Shown: positions 1,062 to 12,220, counted from the stretch's first letter. The stretch is 12,786 bases of DNA from Bellilinea caldifistulae (GCF_001306055.1 NZ_LGHJ01000026.1:1-12786), one strand, 5' to 3'. The notes: a model not told the origin generated them from the letters alone. A program made the numbers and translations.

Positions 1062-1280
1062 TGAATTTCTACTCCATCAAATGGGGTTACCAAATGATTA
1101 GATGAATTTAGAGCGAATTTGTTACAAAATCGGGGCGCGTAAAATCAGTTATAATAAAAATACTGGCTTATTTGGCGTAAAGGATCACTCGCCATCACCC
1201 ACCCATTATGAGAATGTTTTATCGGTGGATGAAAAGCAGAAACTTCTTGATTCAATTTCGTCAATAAACTGGAGGTGATA

Positions 1281-2930
1281 ATGAAAACCGTAGTTGCCGG
1301 CGCACTAGGAGAATGTGTCCATGTTGCCGGTGTGAGTAATTTCCTCAGGTTGGCGGAGATGGCTGGCTGGCGGACTGTTTTCTTAGGCCCAGCGGTTCCG
1401 GTAAAAGAGTTTATTCAAGCAGCAATACGAGAAAAAGCCGACCTGGTTGGGGTTTCATATCGCCTGACCCCAGAAACCGGCGAAAGATTGCTGGGGGAAT
1501 TTGCTGAAGCGGCCGACGAATTACGATCAAAAGGGGTCCGGTTTGCTTTTGCTGGAACACCGCCGGTTGCCGAGCGTGCTCAAAAACTGGGATTTTTCGA
1601 GCAAATTTTTGACGGATCAGAATTGACCGAGGATACCTTAGCCTACCTGCGTGGGGAAGCCTCATCCCAAGCGGGATCATCGTCGTTTCCTCAAACCACT
1701 ATTGAAAGGCGTTTGTGGAAAGCGCCCTTTCCTCTCCTGCGCCATCATTTCGGCCTACCGAGCCTGGAAGAAACCCGGGAAGGGATTCGGAAAATCGCCG
1801 AAGCCCGGATCTTGGATGTAATCTCACTTGGTATTGATCAGGATGCTCAGGAAAATTTCTTTCATCCCGAAAGACAAGATCCGCGCCGGAAGGGAGCCGG
1901 CGGCGTTCCGGTGCGTACTGCCGAGGATTATCGAATGCTCTATGAAGCGTCTCGAACCGGCAATTTTCCCCTTTTACGAACTTACTCGGGCACGGATGAC
2001 TTTATCCGACTGGCAGAGTTGTACCTGGATACCATCCATAATGCCTGGTGCGCTATTCCTTTGTTCTGGTTCAATCAAATGGATGGGCGCGGGCCTTGGG
2101 ATTTGGCTGGCTCAATTCATGAGCACCAGCAAGTAATGGCATGGTATGGAGCGAGAAATGTTCCAGTTGAGTTGAACGAACCGCATCACTGGGGTATGCG
2201 GGATGCGCCGGATGTCATTTTCGTCGTTTCAGCCTTTCTCTCGGCTTACAATGCCAAAGCCTTTGGGGTAAAGGATTACATTGCCCAAATGATGTTCAAC
2301 AGCCCTCCCGGTACTTCTGATGCAATGGATCTGGCTAAAATGTTGGCCATTCTGGAGATGATCCAACCTTTAGCCGGTCCAGATTTTCGCATCTGGATTC
2401 AAACTCGCACCGGTTTATTGTCCTACCCCCTGGATCCCGCAGCTGCCCGCGCTCATCTTTCTGCCAGCATTTACTTACAAATGGCCCTGAAACCAGATAT
2501 TGTCCACATCGTCGGTCATACTGAGGCCGACCATGCCGCCACGGCTGATGAGGTGATTGAAGCCGCAAAAATGGCTCGTCGAGCAATCGAGAATGCCCTC
2601 GCAGGTCAACCGGCGATGATTTACGACCCTCTTTTGATGAGAAGAAAGGAGGAGTTAATTCAGGAGGCAAAAATTACCCTCCGAGCAATCCAAAACCTGT
2701 CCTCAGATGAGAACCGAGATCCTTTTACCGACCCCAACGTTCTGGCTGCATCGGTAACCTCTGGCATCATGGATGCTCCCCAGCTGAAAAACAATCGCTT
2801 TGGAAGAGGGAAAATTCGCACCCGAATCATTGGCGGGGCATGTCTCGCAGTAGATGAAAACGGCACACCCATATCAGAATCACAGAGGTTGGAAAAATTC
2901 TTTAAAACGGGAGGGATAATCAATGACTGA
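1281..2930 (+). CDS. Fusion protein: N-terminal GlmS/MutS-like cobalamin-binding domain, Ser-rich linker, then a roughly 410-aa domain that may be a B12-mutase-type (GlmE-like) TIM barrel
   Basis: The track ORF begins at GTG 1275. ATG 1281 is preferred because SD GGAGG (1271-1275) lies 5 nt upstream. Residues 4-115, KTVVAGALGECVHVAGVSNFL...VPVKEFIQAAIREKADLVGVS, resemble the glutamate mutase S subunit (KTIVLGVIGSDCHAVGNKIL...SPQENFIKAAIETKADAILVS). The linker is EASSQAGSSSF (about 1656-1688). The C-terminal assignment is inference only. Confidence 0.8.
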   Translation: MKTVVAGALGECVHVAGVSNFLRLAEMAGWRTVFLGPAVPVKEFIQAAIREKADLVGVSYRLTPETGERLLGEFAEAADELRSKGVRFAFAGTPPVAERAQKLGFFEQIFDGSELTEDTLAYLRGEASSQAGSSSFPQTTIERRLWKAPFPLLRHHFGLPSLEETREGIRKIAEARILDVISLGIDQDAQENFFHPERQDPRRKGAGGVPVRTAEDYRMLYEASRTGNFPLLRTYSGTDDFIRLAELYLDTIHNAWCAIPLFWFNQMDGRGPWDLAGSIHEHQQVMAWYGARNVPVELNEPHHWGMRDAPDVIFVVSAFLSAYNAKAFGVKDYIAQMMFNSPPGTSDAMDLAKMLAILEMIQPLAGPDFRIWIQTRTGLLSYPLDPAAARAHLSASIYLQMALKPDIVHIVGHTEADHAATADEVIEAAKMARRAIENALAGQPAMIYDPLLMRRKEELIQEAKITLRAIQNLSSDENRDPFTDPNVLAASVTSGIMDAPQLKNNRFGRGKIRTRIIGGACLAVDENGTPISESQRLEKFFKTGGIIND

Positions 2931-4047
2931 CATTTCGAGATTTGCAGTAATTGGTGCGGGTAATGGTGGTAAAGCCATGGCTGCCCATTTGGCTTTAATG
3001 GGTTTTGATGTGTCTCTTTACAACCGCACCTATGCCCATGTTGAGATCATTGCCAAGCGTGGGGGAATTGATCTGGAAAGTTACGAAGGAGGGCCTAAAG
3101 GCTTCGGAAAAATTCGGCTGGTTACCGATGATATCGCAACTGCCATCAAAGATGCACAGGTGATTATGGTAGTCTTGCCATCTTCTGCTCATGCGGAAAT
3201 TGCCCAAAAAATGGCCTGTCACCTGAAAGAAGGGCAAACCATCATTCTCCATCCGGGCAGAACCCTGGGTGCCATTGAATTTGATGTCATTCTTCGCAGA
3301 AGCGGATGCAATGTCGAGGTCAACGTCGCAGAGGCAGAAACCTTTATCTATGCCAGCCGCACAGACGGGCCTGCCCAGGCACGTATATTCCGTATCAAGG
3401 AAGCCGTTCCACTGGCAGCTTTACCCGCGGTAAAGACTCCTCTAGTTCTTGAACAAATCCGTATCGCATTTCCGCAATACATTGATGGCATTAATGTACT
3501 GCACACCGGGTTGAATAACATGGGGGCAATTTTTCATCCGGCTCTGACCATCCTCAATGCCGGATGGATCGAAGCCACCCACGGGGACTTTCAATTTTAC
3601 ATTGATGGAGTGACCCCATCCGTCGCCCGCGTACTGGAGATTCTGGATCGAGAAAGGGTGACGGTGGCTTCTGCTTTAGGAATTCGTGCCCGCACGGCAT
3701 TAGAATGGCTGGAATTGGCTTACAACGTCACAGGCGAAACATTACACGAGCGTATTCACAACCAGACAGGCTATTACGGAATTAAAGCCCCGGCTACGCT
3801 TAACCACCGCTATATTTTTGAGGATGTCCCGATGAGCCTCGTACCAATAGCATCACTGGGAGAACGTTACGGCGTTTCAGTCAATGGAATTAATAGCGTG
3901 ATCAGGCTGGCCTGCATCATTCACCGCACCGATTATTGGCGGCGTGGTAGAACATTGGAAAAGTTGGGCATTAAAGATTTGAGTGTCAGCGAGCTGACTA
4001 CCTATGTAACTTCTGGCTGGAAAGATATCGAAAGCTTTAGCGGCTAG
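2923..4047 (+). CDS. NAD(P)-dependent opine (octopine/nopaline) dehydrogenase family oxidoreductase
   Basis: N-terminal Rossmann motif FAVIGAGNGGKAMAAHLALMGFDV. The C-terminal helical domain shows family-typical segments (IFHPALTILNAGWIE, FYIDGVTP, EDVPMSLVP). SD GGGAGGG lies at 2909-2915. The ATG overlaps the upstream stop (ATGACTGA, 8-nt overlap). Confidence 0.85.
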   Translation: MTDISRFAVIGAGNGGKAMAAHLALMGFDVSLYNRTYAHVEIIAKRGGIDLESYEGGPKGFGKIRLVTDDIATAIKDAQVIMVVLPSSAHAEIAQKMACHLKEGQTIILHPGRTLGAIEFDVILRRSGCNVEVNVAEAETFIYASRTDGPAQARIFRIKEAVPLAALPAVKTPLVLEQIRIAFPQYIDGINVLHTGLNNMGAIFHPALTILNAGWIEATHGDFQFYIDGVTPSVARVLEILDRERVTVASALGIRARTALEWLELAYNVTGETLHERIHNQTGYYGIKAPATLNHRYIFEDVPMSLVPIASLGERYGVSVNGINSVIRLACIIHRTDYWRRGRTLEKLGIKDLSVSELTTYVTSGWKDIESFSG

Positions 4048-4070
4048 GAAGCAAATAGCCAAAACGATAA

Positions 4071-4097
4071 GTCCCGCAACTCAGCGGGGCTTTTTTT
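4071..4097 (+). terminator. Rho-independent terminator after the B12-fusion/dehydrogenase pair
   Basis: GTCCCGC-aactca-GCGGGGC forms a 7-bp GC-rich stem with one G-U pair, followed by T7 (4091-4097). It starts 24 nt past the stop. Confidence 0.85.
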
Positions 4098-4179
4098 ACT
4101 TGATTTTTACGAAAAGACAATCAAATTTGTAATATTATACTTGATTGAATGTGTATAATAAATAAACATTATACGATAT

Positions 4180-6177
4180 ATGTTCCCCTCAAAAGTCATT
4201 ATTGCCTCCACAGATTCATCTCTCAACCACACATTGGTAAATTTTCTCCAAAAATCGGGTTGGGTGGATATTCAAATTGCTCGCTCATTTGATCATCTTT
4301 TAGAATTTTGCTGCCTGACCGATCAGGAAATTCTTATTTTTTTATATCCCCCAGCCCCTTCATCATGGCAGTTGCTCGAATCACTCCAATCCCTTAGAAG
4401 AAAATCCAAAGCCTTACTGATATTAATCCTTGATCCCAACCAGATTGAAAACCAATCACACAATGCTTTAGGAAAGTTGATTGACGGTTTTCTTCTTCAA
4501 CCAGTCAACGAGTATTATCTGAATGCCACCCTGATGATGGCCAGAGAACGAAGACAACGGGAATTGGATCTATTGAAAAGCGAAGAAAAATTTCAACGTC
4601 TTTTTCTTAAATCCAATGACCCAAGTCTTTTGGTACTCAATCAAATCATTATTGACTGCAATCAGGCGGCACTCAACCAACTCCGCGCAGAACGCCGGGA
4701 AATTCTTGGCAAATCGCTAGCAGATCTTTCACCCGAAATTCAACCGGATGGTAATTTCTCGGTTAATCAAGCCGATTTCTATACGAACGAGGCATTGAAA
4801 ACAGGGTTTATTGAATTTCGATGGCTTCATCGGCGGTTTGACGGCAGTCAATTTCTTGCCGAAGTGTCTTTGACCGCAATCCCCTATGCGGGGGATTTGG
4901 CTTTGTTTGCCAAATGGCGGGATGTAACCGAAATCGAACAGTACAAAAAATCCCTGCAAATGAGCGAACAACGCTATCGCCAACTTTTTGAAACCATGTT
5001 GAATGGTTTTGCGCTTCATGAAATGATTTTTGATGAACACCACAAACCCGTAGATTATCGTTTTATTGCGGTAAATCCGGCTTTTGAAAAGTTGACCGGA
5101 CTATCAGCGGATGCCATTCTGGGAAAAACAGTTCTTGAGGTATTGCCGAATACCGAACCATACTGGATAGAAACCTACGGAAAAGTTGCCTGGAGTGGTG
5201 AACCGGTGTTGATAGAAAATTACTCGCAGGAATTGGATCGGTATTACCGGGTTTTTGCGTTTTCTCCCGTCAAAGGCCAGTTCGCAACCTTGTTTGAGGA
5301 CATTACCATCCAAAGAAAAAACGAACGCTACCAATCGGCTTTACTACAACTTTCGGAAAAAATTCGGCAAGCTTACACCACGGAAGAGATGGCTCAAACC
5401 ATTGTTCATACGATTGGCTTGATATTAGAGTTAGAGACAGCAGCCATTGCATTGAAATCACCCGAAAACGCCGACAAATTCCGGTTTGTTTTTGGAACCG
5501 GTAAGGCAAAAGAGTGGATCGGAGCCGAATTTACAAAGGATCAGGGTATAACCGGTTACACCTTACGCAGTAAAACTCCTTATTTCCAAAACAATTTAGC
5601 CAACGATCCATATTATCTCCGTGACCAGCCGCAATATTATCACCCATTTGTAGCTGCCGTACCGTTAATCTCCGGAGAGGATCCCATTGGAGTACTTCTG
5701 CTGGGAAGAAACAAATCTTTTACCGATACGGATCAACTGATTGTTACTTCCATGAGCGAGCTGATCGGTAATGCTCTTCAAAGAATGCTTCTTCAGGAAA
5801 AGACTCAGCAAACCGTGGACTACCTGTCTGCCTTGCGCAAAATTGACTTGACCATCACCCTCGGCAGAGATTTGGGAGACCGTTTGAGCGTTTTACTGGA
5901 AGTTGTTGTCGAACATCAAAAAGTGGATGCAGCCAGCATCTGGTTGAAAGAACCGCAAACCGATTTTTTCAACCTTGCAGCAATTCGAGGATTTCGATCA
6001 GGTACTCTTCCACTACCGACTTCACCTTATCCGGGAATAACGGGCAGTCCCAATCAATTCTTGCACCTTCAAAATCAGGAATTGCAATCCGCACTGGATG
6101 GGGAATTTGGACAAATTATTCGGAAGGAAGGATTTACCGATTATATGGGAATTCCTCTAACTACAAAAAAAAAATGA
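4180..6177 (+). CDS. Signalling protein, 5' fragment: pseudo-receiver, PAS, PAS, GAF, and first part of GAF2; the reading frame ends inside an A10 run
   Basis: The 665-aa ORF has a REC-like N-terminus, two PAS modules (SEEKFQRLF..., SEQRYRQLFETMLNGFALHE...) and GAF-like segments (GITGYTL..., AAVPLISGEDPIGVLLLGR). It ends GIPLTTKKK* in the middle of a GAF beta strand. Confidence 0.85.
   Translation: MFPSKVIIASTDSSLNHTLVNFLQKSGWVDIQIARSFDHLLEFCCLTDQEILIFLYPPAPSSWQLLESLQSLRRKSKALLILILDPNQIENQSHNALGKLIDGFLLQPVNEYYLNATLMMARERRQRELDLLKSEEKFQRLFLKSNDPSLLVLNQIIIDCNQAALNQLRAERREILGKSLADLSPEIQPDGNFSVNQADFYTNEALKTGFIEFRWLHRRFDGSQFLAEVSLTAIPYAGDLALFAKWRDVTEIEQYKKSLQMSEQRYRQLFETMLNGFALHEMIFDEHHKPVDYRFIAVNPAFEKLTGLSADAILGKTVLEVLPNTEPYWIETYGKVAWSGEPVLIENYSQELDRYYRVFAFSPVKGQFATLFEDITIQRKNERYQSALLQLSEKIRQAYTTEEMAQTIVHTIGLILELETAAIALKSPENADKFRFVFGTGKAKEWIGAEFTKDQGITGYTLRSKTPYFQNNLANDPYYLRDQPQYYHPFVAAVPLISGEDPIGVLLLGRNKSFTDTDQLIVTSMSELIGNALQRMLLQEKTQQTVDYLSALRKIDLTITLGRDLGDRLSVLLEVVVEHQKVDAASIWLKEPQTDFFNLAAIRGFRSGTLPLPTSPYPGITGSPNQFLHLQNQELQSALDGEFGQIIRKEGFTDYMGIPLTTKKK
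6165..6174 (+). other. A10 homopolymer at the junction of the two reading frames of the HD-GYP gene (frameshift or slippage site)
   Basis: Frame 1 stops at TGA 6175-6177. Frame 2 is open from 6161 and reads LQKKNDWGILQLWKRSEIRPTFEWMNFLEMLAGQAAIAIED, which is the expected continuation of the GAF domain. Confidence 0.9.
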
Positions 6178-6232
6178 TTGGGGAATTCTCCAGCTTTGGA
6201 AACGTTCAGAAATCAGACCAACTTTTGAGTGG

Positions 6233-6901
6233 ATGAATTTTTTAGAAATGCTGGCCGGTCAGGCCGCCATTGCAATTGAGGACAGCCAATTACTATCGGA
6301 TCTCCAGTACCACATCAACGAATTGCAAACCGCTTACGATACAACCTTACAGGGATGGGCAAAAGCTCTCGAAATTCGCGATGCCGAAACCCAAAACCAC
6401 AGCCAGCGAGTTACGCAAATCACGCTCGCACTGGCAAAGAGGTTGGGAGTTGATGAAACGCAATTACCGCATATCCGGCGGGGAATACTACTCCATGATA
6501 TTGGCAAAATGGGTATTCCTGATTCGATCCTGAACAAGGCCGGTCCCCTGACGCCCGAAGAATGGGAAATTATGCGTCGCCATCCTCAAATGGCCTATGA
6601 TGTCCTCTCCGGAATTCCCTTTCTGAGGCCGGCGCTTGACATTCCATATTACCACCATGAAAAGTGGGATGGTAGCGGTTATCCGCAAGGGTTGAAAGGC
6701 GAGGAGATACCGTTGGCTGCCCGGATTTTTGCAGTTGTGGATGTTTGGGATGCCTTATTATCAGATAGACCCTATCGCCCGGCGTGGGAAAAAACCAAGG
6801 TAATATCCTATTTACGCGAACAGGCTGGAAAACATTTCGATCCAAAAATTGTGGAGGTATTTTTAGAGTTAATTTTAGAAGAGGAAGAAAAAAACGATTA
6901 G
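6233..6901 (+). CDS. Signalling protein, 3' fragment: end of GAF2 plus an HD-GYP domain (c-di-GMP phosphodiesterase type)
   Basis: HSQRVTQITLALA, LLHDIGKMGIP and HHEKWDGSGYP are the diagnostic HD and GYP motifs. The open frame extends upstream to 6161, so ATG 6233 is probably not a real start. Confidence 0.85.
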   Translation: MNFLEMLAGQAAIAIEDSQLLSDLQYHINELQTAYDTTLQGWAKALEIRDAETQNHSQRVTQITLALAKRLGVDETQLPHIRRGILLHDIGKMGIPDSILNKAGPLTPEEWEIMRRHPQMAYDVLSGIPFLRPALDIPYYHHEKWDGSGYPQGLKGEEIPLAARIFAVVDVWDALLSDRPYRPAWEKTKVISYLREQAGKHFDPKIVEVFLELILEEEEKND

Positions 6902-7856: not shown

Positions 7857-9692
7857 TCAACCTCTCCATTCAACATTAATTTCTTCTTTTAGTTTCCCTG
7901 CCTGCTCGATATATGTTAAAGATTGATGCCGAAAATATGTGTTGTACAGTTCAGCGTAATGCCCCCCTGCTGACATCAATTCCTGATGGGTACCTTGCTC
8001 GATGATTTTACCGTGGTCAAGCACGATGATTCGATCGGCAGATTTAACCGTCGAAAGTCGGTGGGCAATCAAGATGCTGGTAGATTGTGCCAGAACCATT
8101 GATAGGGCTTGTTGGATTTGTCTTTCTGTGAAAGGATCAATGCTGGCAGTGGCCTCATCCAGCACGAAAATTGCCGGTTTTTGAACCAAAACCCGCATCA
8201 AAGAAACCAATTGTCGCTGCCCCATAGATAAGCGGCTTCCTCGCTCACCCACTTGTGTCAACAAACCCTCCGGTAAGGCTTCCAGCCACTCACCATTGCC
8301 GATTTGATAGGCAAGGCGTTCAATCTCTTTTGGACTGGCGCCTTTGCAGGAATACTGGATATTTTCCAACACGGTACCCGAAAACAAAAAAGGTACCTGC
8401 GAAACAATCCCCAGCTGACAGCGGTAACTGCCCAAATCAAAACTGCGGATGTCCAAATGGTCTATCAAGATTTCACCTGCTTGGAATTCATAAAACCGGG
8501 CAATCAATTTAACCACCGAGGATTTTCCTGCCCCCGTGTGACCCACCAGAGCCACCGATTCACCCGGTCGAATGTGCAGGTTGAAATCCTCCAAAACCGG
8601 TTCATTGTCTTTGTAGCGGAAATATACATGCTTGAAATCAATCTGTCCCTTCAATGGCGGAGCTTTGACATTGCCGATTTGAACCACGCTCGGGTCAGCA
8701 TCAATCAGCGCAAAAACCCGTTCGGCTGCCGAAAGACCATTTTGGATTTGAGTCCAGAACGAAGACAGATTCATGACCGGGAACATGAAACGGTCGAGGC
8801 TCAATAAAAACAGATACCACGCCCCTACGGTTACCGCCCCTTGAACAGCGCTCAACCCGCCAACATAAACCAGCAAGGCCGTCATCCAGCCGCCAACGGT
8901 GTTGAGTACCGGGAATACCATAGACAAGACCAGCCCTCGACGAACATTAACCTGATAGGACATTCGGTTAGACTGGTCAAAGATTTCAAAAATTCGACCT
9001 TCTTGGCGAAAATTTTTGGCAACAGCAATTCCAGATACCGTTTCTTTGATCGTTTGATTGACATTTGCCATGGCTCTCATTCCGGCTCGAGTGACTTTGC
9101 GCGCCAGTCCACGAAAACTGGCCGCCAAAAGCACCACAATCGGGATTACCGCAAAGAGAGTTAGCGACAATTGCCATTCAATGTTTATCAGTACAATGGC
9201 AAGGATGAGCGACTCGACCACCTGCGAAATCAGATCGGTGGTCAAAACCACCAGCTGACCAAAGTCCTGTGTATCGCTCGTAATTCGGGAAGCAATTCGT
9301 CCGGAGGAAAACTGGTCGTAAAAAGACAAATCGTGCTCCGCTGCCGAAGCAAAGGCTTCATTGGCCAGTCGAGCAACGACATCAGCCACTGAACGTACCA
9401 CCAGACGGCGTGCCTGCCAGTTTGCCAGCCAGGCAATCACTCCGGTGAGCATGACCGCAAACGGGACAAGCAGCACATTGATCGTTGTCAATTCCTGCTT
9501 AAGAAAATCAATTCCTCTGGAAACCAGTACGGGCAGCAATGCACCCGAACCGGAAACCACCAGAACCAGCAATCCCACCAGTATCAGCCGACGATAATGG
9601 GGGCGGAAATAGACCAGAATACGCCGGACCAGCTCTCGATCACTGTATTTTCGGTCGTATTTTTCGGCATCTAATCCGGCAAAAAATCCCAT
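7857..9692 (-). CDS. ABC exporter fused permease/ATPase subunit (type IV exporter fold); carries the consensus catalytic Glu but a non-canonical signature
   Basis: Six-TM N-terminal domain. Walker A is GHTGAGKSS. The signature is LSMGQ (M490 at 8223-8225). Walker B is IFVLDE (E513 at 8154-8156). The H-loop is IAHRL. Confidence 0.95.
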   Translation of the reverse strand: MGFFAGLDAEKYDRKYSDRELVRRILVYFRPHYRRLILVGLLVLVVSGSGALLPVLVSRGIDFLKQELTTINVLLVPFAVMLTGVIAWLANWQARRLVVRSVADVVARLANEAFASAAEHDLSFYDQFSSGRIASRITSDTQDFGQLVVLTTDLISQVVESLILAIVLINIEWQLSLTLFAVIPIVVLLAASFRGLARKVTRAGMRAMANVNQTIKETVSGIAVAKNFRQEGRIFEIFDQSNRMSYQVNVRRGLVLSMVFPVLNTVGGWMTALLVYVGGLSAVQGAVTVGAWYLFLLSLDRFMFPVMNLSSFWTQIQNGLSAAERVFALIDADPSVVQIGNVKAPPLKGQIDFKHVYFRYKDNEPVLEDFNLHIRPGESVALVGHTGAGKSSVVKLIARFYEFQAGEILIDHLDIRSFDLGSYRCQLGIVSQVPFLFSGTVLENIQYSCKGASPKEIERLAYQIGNGEWLEALPEGLLTQVGERGSRLSMGQRQLVSLMRVLVQKPAIFVLDEATASIDPFTERQIQQALSMVLAQSTSILIAHRLSTVKSADRIIVLDHGKIIEQGTHQELMSAGGHYAELYNTYFRHQSLTYIEQAGKLKEEINVEWRG

Positions 9693-9714
9693 AGCAAATG
9701 GTTCCTATCGCCCT

Positions 9715-11466
9715 TTATAGTTCCTGAAAGATATTCCGATATGTTTCACTGGTTTTCATCAATTCTTCATGACTGCCAACAGCAACCAGCTCGCCTTTGC
9801 GTAAAACCAAAATCAGATCTGCCCAACGGATTTGAGAAAGACGATGGGTAATAATAAAGGTGGTTCGCCCTTGAGCGGCGGTGTAAATCGCGCGTTGAAT
9901 CTTGTCCTCGGTTGCCGAGTCGATTGCGCTGGTTGAATCATCCAGTATCAAAATGCTGGGCTGGGTCAAAAAGGCACGCGCCAATGCCAATCGCTGGCGC
10001 TGGCCACCCGATAGCGTTACACCCCGCTCACCGATGACCGTATCATATCCTTTATCAAAAGACCGGATAAACTCATCAGCCTGTGCAGCGGTGGCAGCCT
10101 TGACAATTTCATCCATGGAAGCACCCGGTTTACCGAAGGCAATATTTTCTGCAATGGTTTGAGAAAACAGGAAAATGTCCTGTTCAATGATTGAAATCTG
10201 CCGCCTTAAGGATTCCAGATTCCAATCCCGAACATCAACTCCATCCACCAGCACTCGTCCACTGGTAACATCGTAAATCCGATTGATCAGCTTTACCAGC
10301 GTGGTTTTACCGCTTCCGGTTTGCCCGACAATTGCCACAATTTGTCCAGGACGCACATGGAAAGAAACATCTTTCAACACAGTTTCGTTGTTCTGATAAG
10401 CAAAACTGACTTGATCAAACACCACATCCCCTTGCATTATGCCATGGTGACCGTTTTCATTTTGGTCGAGATTGTTCTCTCGATTCATCAATTCCAAAAT
10501 CCGCCGGGCACCGGCCAGGCCCAACGATATGCGCGAGTAAGCAAAAATGGAAACGAAAGTCGGGAAAGAAAGCATGACCAGTAATCCAAAGTAAGCAACC
10601 ACATCACCTGTGTTGATCAATCCCTGTTTGAAAAGAATCAGGGCATGCAAAAGACCACCCCCCATGGCAACAGCCAGCAGTAAGGCCGGCAAAAAACGGG
10701 CTTCAATATCTCCTTGCTTAATCGCAGCTTTGCGGTAGCGATCCACATTTTTACCAAAAAGCATGACCTCGCCCTGTTCTTGGGCAGCTCCTTTGACCAC
10801 CTCAATCCCATCCAGGGCTTCGTTCAGTCGGGTGTTGAGAATTCCGAATGAGTAACGTACTTCATCGGTGACCGGTTCCAGTTCTTTCAGGTAGAACCTC
10901 AATAGAATAAAATAGATCACCACAAACAAAAGTGGTACCAAAACCAGGGAAGGATGATAACGAGGAGCAACCACTATAGGAACAAAGATAAAAATCAACG
11001 AACCAATCACCAGATTGACACCGGGAGAAAATAAGAAGTTAACCTCACGGACATCGTTAGTTGCCCGTGCCATGGTGTCTCCCACCGGTTGAAGGCTGTG
11101 AAAGGTCATGCTCTTTCCTAAAAGGGACACATATAATTCCTGCCGGATGTTTCGTTCAATCCTCTGAGCAATCACTTCAAAACCGAAGTTACGGGCAAAT
11201 TGCAGTACACCTCGAATTGTCTGGGAAATCACGATGATCAGGACAATTTGCAGCAGGCGATTGCGATCAAAATTGCCCCCGTTCACCAGATTAACCGCCT
11301 GGCCGATCATCACTGGCACAACACCGGCAAGTCCGGCGTTACCCAATGCGCCAATCACGGCAACAATCACCAGCCACCATTGATATTTCAGGTGGGATAA
11401 AATCCAGCGCACCGGGCCGCGCCGGTCAGTAGAATACAAATGGGGGAAGGAAAATTCAGCGTTCAT
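9715..11466 (-). CDS. ABC exporter fused permease/ATPase subunit; canonical signature but catalytic Glu replaced by Asp
   Basis: Walker A is GQTGSGKTT. The signature is LSGGQRQR. Walker B is ILILDD, with D510 (9937-9939) at the catalytic-base position. The H-loop is ITHRL. A 22-nt gap separates it from the downstream partner gene. Confidence 0.95.
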   Translation of the reverse strand: MNAEFSFPHLYSTDRRGPVRWILSHLKYQWWLVIVAVIGALGNAGLAGVVPVMIGQAVNLVNGGNFDRNRLLQIVLIIVISQTIRGVLQFARNFGFEVIAQRIERNIRQELYVSLLGKSMTFHSLQPVGDTMARATNDVREVNFLFSPGVNLVIGSLIFIFVPIVVAPRYHPSLVLVPLLFVVIYFILLRFYLKELEPVTDEVRYSFGILNTRLNEALDGIEVVKGAAQEQGEVMLFGKNVDRYRKAAIKQGDIEARFLPALLLAVAMGGGLLHALILFKQGLINTGDVVAYFGLLVMLSFPTFVSIFAYSRISLGLAGARRILELMNRENNLDQNENGHHGIMQGDVVFDQVSFAYQNNETVLKDVSFHVRPGQIVAIVGQTGSGKTTLVKLINRIYDVTSGRVLVDGVDVRDWNLESLRRQISIIEQDIFLFSQTIAENIAFGKPGASMDEIVKAATAAQADEFIRSFDKGYDTVIGERGVTLSGGQRQRLALARAFLTQPSILILDDSTSAIDSATEDKIQRAIYTAAQGRTTFIITHRLSQIRWADLILVLRKGELVAVGSHEELMKTSETYRNIFQEL

Positions 11467-11665: not shown

Positions 11666-11694
11666 TTGAAATGAGAAAGATTTTTTGCTACAAT
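11666..11694 (+). promoter_or_regulatory. Sigma-70-type promoter of the Lrp/AsnC regulator gene: TTGAAA, 17 nt, TACAAT, with TGc extended -10
   Basis: TTGAAA lies at 11666-11671, followed by an exact 17-nt spacer. TG lies at 11686-11687 and TACAAT at 11689-11694. The -10 overlaps the ATG at 11693 used by the ORF track. Confidence 0.6.
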
Positions 11695-11740
11695 GGGTAT
11701 TGCCTATTCGGAATACATTTTTTCCGTTTCGGAAATTCCC

Positions 11741-12220
11741 ATGACAAAATCAGCACAGTTCGATTTACTGGACTACCAGATCATATTGGAATTACGCAAA
11801 GATGCGCGCAAATCGGCATCGGAAATCGCCCGCGCCCTGAAGGCGAATGAACGCACCGTTCGCAATCGGATTGACCGATTGGTAGAGTCCGGCGCTGTCC
11901 GCCTGACCTCCATCCTTGATCCGCACGCCTTTGGTTATGTCAACACGGTGGATATTTTCCTCGAAGTTGATTCTGATCAGGAACAGTCCGCCATCGAGCA
12001 ATTACTCAAAATGCACGAAGTCTCCTACCTGGCTTACGGTCTGGGAACACAGGACATTTCAATCGAGGCTCGTTTCAAAGACAACGCTGAAATGCGCCAA
12101 TTTTTGGGTAAGGTATTACCTTCTATCCCCGGTGTTCGCGTAAAGGGCTACGCTCTGGTCCCCCGCATACTGCGCAACATTGACGAGTGGTTGCCCAAAC
12201 CCGAGGATTTTGAGGGATGA
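11741..12220 (+). CDS. Lrp/AsnC family transcriptional regulator
   Basis: The HTH_AsnC pattern LDYQIILELRKDARKSASEIARALKANERTVRNRIDRLVESGAV is followed by a RAM-like C-terminal domain. ATG 11741 is preferred over 11693 because the promoter overlaps 11693. Confidence 0.9.
   Translation: MTKSAQFDLLDYQIILELRKDARKSASEIARALKANERTVRNRIDRLVESGAVRLTSILDPHAFGYVNTVDIFLEVDSDQEQSAIEQLLKMHEVSYLAYGLGTQDISIEARFKDNAEMRQFLGKVLPSIPGVRVKGYALVPRILRNIDEWLPKPEDFEG

Follow-up and report, generated by a model that had tools for sequence, protein, structure and literature searches.

We analysed a stretch of 12,786 nucleotides from Bellilinea caldifistulae (GCF_001306055.1, NZ_LGHJ01000026.1:1-12786), hereafter the window, in which two open reading frames (ORF), ORF A and ORF B, overlap on the + strand. 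ORF A probably encodes a single-chain radical isomerase of glutamate mutase ancestry that depends on adenosylcobalamin (AdoCbl) and that, together with the opine dehydrogenase (ODH) homologue encoded by ORF B, would supply an unusual branched amino or imino acid. What the analysis shows are the domain identities, the fold, the residue conservation and the gene linkage. The features of the pair, numbered from the first letter of the window, are as follows.

1271..1275, + strand: Shine-Dalgarno sequence of ORF A, GGAGG, 5 nt 5' of the ATG (read from the sequence)
1281..2930, + strand: ORF A, putative single-chain B12-binding/GlmE-like barrel protein of 549 aa; ATG at 1281, TGA at 2928-2930
1281..1655, + strand: GlmS/MutS-like cobalamin-binding Rossmann domain, aa 1-125 (PF02310, 1be1_A, Foldseek 1cb7_A)
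1308..1331, + strand: lower-ligand motif G-E-C-V-H-V-A-G, residues 10-17; His14 codon CAT at 1320-1322
1656..1694, + strand: Ser-rich interdomain linker E126-Q138, EASSQAGSSSFPQ (sequence, dip in pLDDT, gapped alignment)
1695..2927, + strand: GlmE-like (beta/alpha)8 barrel and C-terminal subdomain, aa 139-549 (AlphaFold2, Foldseek, hhalign)
2523..2525, + strand: codon of Glu415, aligned to GlmE Glu330 (hhalign)
2909..2915, + strand: Shine-Dalgarno sequence of ORF B, GGGAGGG, inside the end of ORF A, 7 nt 5' of the ORF B ATG
2923..2930, + strand: 8-nt overlap ATGACTGA of the ORF B start and the ORF A stop (sequence)
2923..4047, + strand: ORF B, NAD(P)-dependent enzyme of the opine dehydrogenase family, 374 aa (PF02317; N-(1-D-carboxyethyl)-L-norvaline dehydrogenase, CENDH, 1bg6)
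4069..4099, + strand: intrinsic terminator with a 9-bp stem (6 GC pairs), a 6-nt loop and a T-run (sequence)

For the C-terminal 410 residues of ORF A, sequence searches of Pfam, NCBIfam and PDB gave no match, and PF06368 (Met_asp_mut_E) did not match the window protein at E<=1; the homology of this part to GlmE emerged only from scans of the homologues, profile comparison and predicted structure. Modelling of the whole of ORF A with AlphaFold2 from a 30-sequence alignment (pLDDT 81.5, pTM 0.81) gave a Rossmann domain, then an eight-stranded beta/alpha barrel, then a small C-terminal subdomain. When this model was compared with the PDB by Foldseek, the top match was glutamate mutase E (1cb7_B, E 1.1e-13), followed by ornithine 4,5-aminomutase (OAM), lysine 5,6-aminomutase, methylmalonyl-CoA mutase (MCM) and IcmF. 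Residues 135-549 were also modelled alone from 42 more diverse sequences (pLDDT 88.1, pTM 0.90), and this barrel retrieved GlmE 6h9e_B with E 2.6e-16 (TMq 0.73-0.74, TMt 0.64), five orders of magnitude better than the next match, OraE, at 6e-11. The 31 best PDB matches of the barrel model were all catalytic subunits of AdoCbl isomerases, and not members of a non-mutase family.

At the level of sequence the signal was weaker. Of 30 close homologues, 8 matched PF06368 weakly, the best with E 6.4e-6 and 25.4 bits, where the cut-off is 26.6. In P0129, a distant relative, PF06368 matched over positions 21-383 of 441 with 27.5 bits, just over the cut-off. The alignment by hhalign of a family of 33 diverse members, at 26-53% identity, with a GlmE alignment placed residues 150-533 on GlmE 60-440 over 354 columns (E 0.0023, probability 12%), and with the single GlmE sequence, which was verified against 6h9e_B, it gave E 0.014 and a probability of 3%. 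The identity of the barrel to GlmE was about 16%. In this alignment it was possible to recover exactly the pairing of segments that had been pointed out in the original prediction, TRTGLLSYPLD...IVHIVGHTEADHAAT with GlmE ...KVIVKTPHEAIGIPT. As modelled, the C-terminal part of ORF A is a GlmE-type TIM barrel, as had been proposed earlier from segment patterns; the residue-by-residue mapping on GlmE comes from a remote alignment anchored by conserved glycines and should be taken as a lead, not as proof.

The N-terminal domain was recognised by Pfam B12-binding PF02310 at aa 3-104 (E 3e-10), and its best PDB sequence match was MutS 1be1_A (phmmer E 1.2e-4, aa 2-97, about 32% identity), in an alignment that took in the FI.AAI..KADL..VS block and placed His14 on the ligand His. 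The resemblance of the first 115 residues to GlmS/MutS, which the original prediction had called close, was thus found, although it was only moderate. By structure the domain matched GlmS 1cb7_A (Foldseek TMt 0.72), and the best NCBIfam match was glutamate mutase subunit S, whose equivalog level was not reached (26.5 against a cut-off of 110). Residues 126-138 form the Ser-rich linker (EASSQAGSSSFPQ) that had been predicted to lead into a domain of about 410 aa, and 410 residues do follow it; the block showed a dip in pLDDT and was variable and gapped in the alignments.

The lower-ligand motif was read as before, with residues 10-17 being GECVHVAG and the His codon at 1320-1322. The earlier description of an acidic residue displaced by one position suits ORF A itself, but at the level of the family the change is better described as Asp to Cys, and HMMER places the Cys, not the Glu, opposite the canonical Asp of D-x-H. 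The pattern [D/E]-C-x-H-x-x-G was present in 120/120 closest relatives, and the C-x-H-x-x-G variant also in 30/30 close homologues. Among the full-length representatives (at least 480 aa) of clusters at 50% identity, 20 carried C-x-H, with an acid at His-3 in 11 and N/Q/S/P in 9, and 16 others carried the canonical D-x-H-x-x-G. Conservation of the ExxHxxG form, which the original prediction had proposed to check, therefore held at the -3 acid for close relatives and in only about half of the C-x-H representatives. D-A-H-T-L-G was found in 119/119 members of a Firmicutes clade. His14 and Gly17 were kept in at least 90% of the 33 diverse members. The full fingerprint D-x-H-x-x-G...S-x-L...G-G is altered in ORF A, which has Cys for Asp, S59-Y-R and A91-G92.

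As a separate observation, His-x-x-Gly was missing from the first 45 residues in P0152, where GDPKYTNEF stands at the place of the motif, and in about 10 other representatives at 50% identity. In these members, which keep the barrel, cobalamin may no longer be ligated or may be bound in another way.

ORF A is 100% identical to the database protein P0001. A word-indexed search returned more than 7,500 non-redundant homologues, all of the 120 best coming from Anaerolineae at 73% identity or more. When the barrel alone was used in an exhaustive search by HMMER, 577 clusters at 50% identity were obtained. Members that were named or identified by context came from Anaerolinea, Bellilinea and Longilinea, from Rikenellaceae, from Tissierellia/Clostridia (Proteiniborus, Anaerosalibacter, Schnuerera) and from a Woesearchaeota archaeon. 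The spread covers Chloroflexota, Bacillota and Bacteroidota and apparently DPANN archaea, the latter represented by the one Woesearchaeota-named protein and one archaeal-looking locus. In the source records the proteins carry unspecific or mistaken names ('cobalamin B12-binding domain-containing protein', 'methionine synthase', 'MCM cobalamin-binding subunit', 'hypothetical'). In three relatives, P0166, P0170 and P0163, a C-terminal MutL/GlmL domain was fused (PF13941, E down to 2e-82); MutL/GlmL is the reactivase of glutamate mutase, and in clostridia its gene lies between those of the mutase. P0129 was fused to an ATP-grasp domain of the glutathione synthetase type, and P0141 had a weak VanY-like peptidase M15 match.

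It could be argued that a domain with such an altered motif has a role without radical chemistry, for instance in sensing light or redox state or in carrying methyl groups, or is a degenerate module, and that the barrel carries an activity independent of B12. This clade lacks the Asp of D-x-H-x-x-G, the His is gone in some relatives, e.g., P0152, and the N-terminal domain also resembles the B12 domains of CarH-type photoreceptors (8jbs). We regard this reading as extremely unlikely, taking into account that the helical cap domain of methyltransferase corrinoid proteins and CarH is absent, that the barrel matched AdoCbl isomerase barrels only and no methyltransferase barrels, that the glutamate expected to contact the adenosyl ribose is conserved (below), that fusions of the MutL reactivase type exist, and that the His and Gly of the motif persist in nearly all diverse members. 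The methyltransferase and photoreceptor readings were rejected on the missing cap domain and the missing methyltransferase-barrel match.

Glu415 of ORF A fell on GlmE Glu330 in two hhalign runs and was kept in at least 90% of the 33 members. GlmE Glu330 stabilises the dissociated adenosyl group, and MCM Glu370 and OAM Glu338 do likewise (PMC4413051). In the family alignment R154, G158, S182, G208, Y235, D268, E297, D311 and H409 were invariant, and H156, D179, Q190, R270, N299, R307, Q336, R376 and E415 were nearly so. The conserved residues are located at or just past the C-terminal ends of the predicted barrel strands, that is, on the catalytic face, and several of them lie within 187-207, 266-272 and 413-417, the only loops that were modelled with low confidence, as would be expected of ligand-dependent loops. 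Considering that several of the conserved residues are arginines, a polyanionic substrate is suggested.

The residues that bind glutamate in GlmE, Arg66, Arg100, Arg149, Glu171 and Tyr177/Tyr181, were not retained. By hhalign Arg66 corresponds to His156, Arg100 to Gln190, Arg149 to Tyr235 and Glu171 to Gln266, a position that is variable within the family, and the loop with Tyr177/Tyr181 (Y177-K183) is a deletion in ORF A. Since these residues are replaced, the substrate of ORF A is probably not glutamate. ORF A would thus appear AdoCbl-mutase-like and yet fall outside glutamate mutase proper, and as a bona fide glutamate mutase it was rejected on these substrate residues. It is unlikely, in the same way, that ORF A is a fused, divergent glutamate mutase that converts L-glutamate to 3-methylaspartate, with the ODH condensing 3-methylaspartate or glutamate with a 2-oxo acid. 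Several findings lead to such a proposal: GlmE was by far the closest structure, Met_asp_mut_E gave the sole Pfam matches of the barrel, MutL is fused in relatives, and the N-terminus was best matched by glutamate mutase S in both PDB and NCBIfam, with a Foldseek match too. Against it are the replacement or deletion of the glutamate-binding residues just described and the NCBIfam equivalog scores, far under the cut-offs (about 26 against 110). The argument from replaced residues is limited by the remoteness of the alignment, in which Arg154 and Arg233 stand two residues before the positions of replaced arginines, so that a shifted arginine claw is possible.

The second-best structural matches, OraE and KamD (E 6e-11 to 6e-9), bring in another candidate, an aminomutase of the OraSE/KamDE type assisted by pyridoxal 5'-phosphate (PLP), with the ODH oxidising the shifted amino group as in OraSE/Ord or KamDE/Kdd. 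The OraSE and KamDE pathways do run a mutase and then an NAD(P) dehydrogenase, as is generally known and as given in the glossary of PMC4413051. GlmE was about 100,000-fold better than OraE or KamD as a match, however, and the partner in the present pair is an opine dehydrogenase, not a diamino-acid dehydrogenase. The B12-binding domain also has no family-conserved lysine to carry PLP, a role played by Lys629 in OraE and Lys144 in KamE; K353 is at least 90% conserved but belongs to the barrel, not to the N-terminal domain. We consider an aminomutase very unlikely.

ORF B matched Octopine_DH PF02317 with E 2e-47 (161 bits against a cut-off of 30) and NAD_Gly3P_dh_N with 39.9 bits against a cut-off of 23.1, the GxGxxG motif being present. 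It aligned with CENDH from Arthrobacter (1bg6) over aa 4-358 with E 2e-78, and H205, R296 and D301 of ORF B were aligned to H202, R292 and D297 of CENDH, the catalytic positions of CENDH. The partner enzymes of other clades were just 28-36% identical to ORF B; in all clades they kept His205, Arg296 and Glu300 invariant, and Asp301 was kept in 6/7 aligned partner enzymes, being Glu in locus L006. Judged by its sequence, ORF B is a genuine member of the ODH family.

The two genes share the 8-nt overlap ATGACTGA at 2923-2930, as had been noted before, which suggests translational coupling. Overlaps or very short gaps were also seen between the genes of the pair in relatives, with overlaps in Firmicutes loci. 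The start of ORF A at ATG 1281 agrees with the N-termini of homologues (MKTVVAG). The pair was said to have its own Shine-Dalgarno sequence and terminator, and both were located, GGAGG at 1271-1275 and a stem with a T-run at 4069-4099. Since the genes upstream of ORF A, for a glutaredoxin and GroES, are on the opposite strand, ORF A and ORF B form a self-contained two-gene operon.

The neighbourhood analysis proposed in the original prediction was carried out on the fetched loci. An ODH homologue was present in 81/81 fetched loci with the fusion gene, which were 80 Anaerolineae-type metagenome-assembled genomes of distinct GTDB species and L001, the Logan contig of the window itself. When the counts for Anaerolineae and for the distant D-P-H-T clade were taken from loci flanked on either side by at least 4 kb, a same-strand ODH was found in 55/55 Anaerolineae loci, with a median gap of 19.5 nt, and in 26/27 loci of the D-P-H-T clade, which has the canonical D-x-H and comes from metagenomes, with one named member from Rikenellaceae. 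Fusion and ODH also form a two-gene unit in a cultured organism, Anaerolinea thermolimosa (GCA_001050195.2, DF967965.1, locus L169). In 3/6 Firmicutes loci the ODH was directly upstream and overlapped the start of the fusion gene; next to the S-E-MutL triple fusion P0170 (L167), one of two contexts of MutL fusions, the ODH ends 2 nt 5' of the fusion start, and in the archaeal-looking locus the order is ODH, fusion and an ATP-grasp gene resembling D-Ala-D-Ala ligase. The adjacency of fusion and dehydrogenase extends well beyond the window. Because the pair is kept across several bacterial phyla, and apparently in archaea, down to about 30% identity, in either order and often overlapping, the two enzymes are taken to be functionally coupled; ORF A and ORF B are possibly also physically associated. 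The route formed by the fusion and the ODH appears to be conserved across the sampled Anaerolineae.

Outside Anaerolineae the context was richer. In 85 non-Anaerolineae loci the commonest neighbours were the ODH (60) and an ATP-grasp protein of about 410 aa (34), after which came ATP-grasp PF14397 ('sugar-transfer associated') in 26 loci, DegT/EryC1 sugar aminotransferases in 25, initiating sugar transferases in 16 and aldo-keto reductases in 13. These clusters often hold genes for glycosyltransferases, Wzy, flippases and dTDP-sugar enzymes, the module of Proteiniborus sp. MB09-C3 is part of a glycan locus, and some of the neighbouring ATP-grasp proteins matched PylC-like_N.

Two contexts may be described individually. 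In L167 a Mur-ligase homologue and a FemAB-family peptidyltransferase (4450-6578, - strand) lie beside the ODH (7916-8998) and the S-E-MutL fusion (9001-12801), which hints at a link to wall-peptide synthesis. In the Rikenellaceae-type loci L088/L089, positions 6809-15273 hold, in order, ATP-grasp, fusion, ATPgrasp_ST, aldo-keto reductase, CapA-like PGA_cap, ODH and DegT genes, a module embedded among polysaccharide genes; the presence of a CapA-like gene points to the chemistry of a poly-gamma-glutamate-like or peptide side chain.

Anaerolineae usually have the pair by itself, and beyond the ODH only weak partners were found in the 81 loci: an AsnB-type glutamine amidotransferase adjoining the pair in 17 and a DUF5698/DUF2179 membrane protein adjoining it in 23, each either upstream or downstream, and ABC (ATP-binding cassette) ATPases nearby in 15. 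Clusters of antisense ORFs inside the two genes were discarded from this clustering as artefacts.

The direction in which the pair works bears on a catabolic proposal, in which the ODH would oxidatively split an imported opine-like secondary amine and the mutase would feed the resulting amino acid into fermentation. Opine dehydrogenases are reversible, and the source of CENDH, which ORF B matches, is a soil bacterium able to degrade compounds of this kind; B12 mutases are classical entry enzymes of amino-acid fermentation. The pair stands alone in Anaerolineae, and an oligopeptide-type ABC transporter was near it in the window's own contig, in about 15/81 loci and beside the P0166 fusion. That transporter linkage is weak and on the opposite strand, however, and no linked ammonia-lyase, hydratase or lyase genes were found that would serve a downstream route. 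The Firmicutes, the distant D-x-H clade and the archaeal-looking locus, moreover, have the pair in biosynthetic clusters with glycan or peptide-ligase genes. We therefore judge a catabolic pair improbable.

Returning to the biosynthetic isomerase, the following mechanism is proposed. Its inferred parts are the binding of B12, the radical chemistry, which of the two steps comes first, the identity of the substrate and the direction towards biosynthesis. The GlmS-like domain would hold the corrin base-off, with His14 as the lower ligand, and would cap the C-terminal face of the GlmE-like barrel. Substrate binding on this face would trigger homolysis of the Co-C bond, and the 5'-deoxyadenosyl radical, positioned by Glu415, would abstract a hydrogen and lead to a 1,2-rearrangement. 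ORF B is predicted to condense an amino acid reductively with a 2-oxo acid at the expense of NAD(P)H, or to run this reaction backwards; most likely it either supplies the mutase with the N-carboxyalkyl amino acid to be rearranged or acts on the product of the mutase. The substrate of ORF A would be some other molecule than glutamate, derived from an amino acid and probably polyanionic, for which an opine-type N-carboxyalkyl or otherwise modified di- or tricarboxylic amino acid is a candidate. Since the glutamate pocket is gone and the ODH is nearly universal, a substrate made or consumed by the ODH is favoured. In other phyla the ATP-grasp amide ligases would pass the product to amino sugars, glycans or cell-wall peptides. 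Taken together, we put forward, tentatively and as something short of probable, that the family is a widespread, unrecognised AdoCbl carbon-skeleton mutase which acts on an opine made by the ODH, or on a close relative of it, and gives a branched imino or amino acid that is ligated into surface glycans or wall peptides.

Several points weigh against the reading of ORF A and ORF B as a biosynthetic isomerase module. B12 binding by ORF A is a prediction from its sequence, and with Asp to Cys in D-x-H and S-Y-R in place of S-x-L the handling of the cofactor may differ. The homology of the barrel depends mainly on the predicted structure, the window protein lacking a PF06368 match and the profile-profile probability being 12%. 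R66, R100, R149, E171 and Y177/Y181 of GlmE do not appear to be conserved and give no pointer to the substrate. A nearby ODH was missing in 3/6 Firmicutes loci, in two distinct contexts, and in both P0166 loci. Outside the MutL fusions there was no MutL within about 6-10 kb of the fusion gene in the 166 loci, nor in the window; no adenosyltransferase-like or other accessory genes were found in the fetched loci, and no B12 riboswitch or other RNA element was found upstream. Finally, most Anaerolineae pairs are without ligase or glycan genes, and the biosynthetic role seen elsewhere may not transfer to them.

By comparison with known systems, the nearest family is glutamate mutase GlmS/GlmE (MutS/MutE) from Clostridium (EC 5.4.99.1; PDB 1CCW, 1I9C, 6H9E). 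As in GlmS, the B12 domain of ORF A starts at residue 1 and has the His ligand at position 14-16; as in GlmE, there is a TIM barrel with matching strand order, a similar C-terminal subdomain and a Glu at the position of Glu330; and the link to MutL/GlmL is shared through the fusions in some relatives. Glutamate mutase consists of separate S and E polypeptides in an E2S2 complex, whereas ORF A is one chain of 549 aa in the order S to E with a Ser-rich linker. It further differs by C-x-H-x-x-G for D-x-H-x-x-G in its clade, by an arginine claw, E171 and Tyr177/181 loop that are not conserved, and by its pairing with an opine dehydrogenase instead of the methylaspartate ammonia-lyase pathway. An engineered GlmES protein, with S and E of glutamate mutase covalently linked, was reportedly shown by Chen and Marsh in 1997 to be active as a single chain; it differs from ORF A in being artificial, in having the order E then S and in having a true glutamate mutase sequence. 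A barrel and a B12 domain in one chain are also found in MCM, IcmF and 2-methyleneglutarate mutase, which bind the cofactor base-off/His-on, but there the B12 domain is C-terminal and the structural matches were weaker than that of GlmE; the substrates of MCM and IcmF are CoA esters threaded through the barrel.

ORF B aligned end to end with CENDH of Arthrobacter sp. strain 1C (1BG6), of the octopine/nopaline dehydrogenase family, and we know of no characterised opine dehydrogenase with the gene linkage to a B12 mutase that ORF B has. The logic of PylB/PylC/PylD is alike, with a radical amino-acid mutase, an ATP-grasp amide ligase and an NAD-dependent dehydrogenase that lead to an unusual amino acid. 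This is an analogy only and no homology is claimed, as PylB is a radical-SAM enzyme that does not use B12 and PylD is no opine dehydrogenase.

Neither an NCBIfam equivalog nor a Pfam family for the barrel was found, and a full-text literature search gave no paper on the family or the pairing, in agreement with the earlier statement that the pairing is not a recognised pathway. What is new here is an uncharacterised family of putative single-chain AdoCbl isomerases with a fixed ODH partner, with a realistic chance of a new reaction. To our knowledge only about a dozen AdoCbl-dependent isomerase reactions are known, and each new one has so far revealed new radical chemistry and metabolism. The present family is large, sharply conserved and unannotated, with the hallmarks of an isomerase and without the substrate pocket of its nearest relative. 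If the proposal is true, it would add a new B12-dependent reaction, account for a need for B12 in Anaerolineae, a group abundant in sediments and anaerobic digesters, and give an origin for an amino-acid decoration on surface glycans of gut Bacteroidota and Firmicutes. The natural Asp to Cys change in the His-on motif would be a ready probe of how the ligand triad tunes the reactivity of the Co-C bond.

Some minor observations were made in the rest of the window. The window differs from the Logan contig L001 as one strain variant from another, by scattered single-nucleotide differences across 1016-1481 and a 2-nt indel at 1206 in the intergenic leader of ORF A. On the 3' side of the operon, a signalling gene with PAS/GAF/HD domains is split into ORFs at 4180-6177 and 6233-6901 by one extra A in a poly-A run at 6157-6166, and in L001 it is a single gene of 906 aa; the split may reflect a sequencing error in the homopolymer, a pseudogene or a tract subject to phase variation. 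Farther along, two ABC exporter genes (611 and 583 aa, 7857-11466, - strand), each with its transmembrane and ATPase parts fused, lie in tandem, and beyond them is a divergent gene for an AsnC/Lrp-like regulator (11693-12220, + strand). The identities of the exporters and the regulator were judged by eye from the translations, and in other loci these genes were unlinked to the pair of fusion and ODH.

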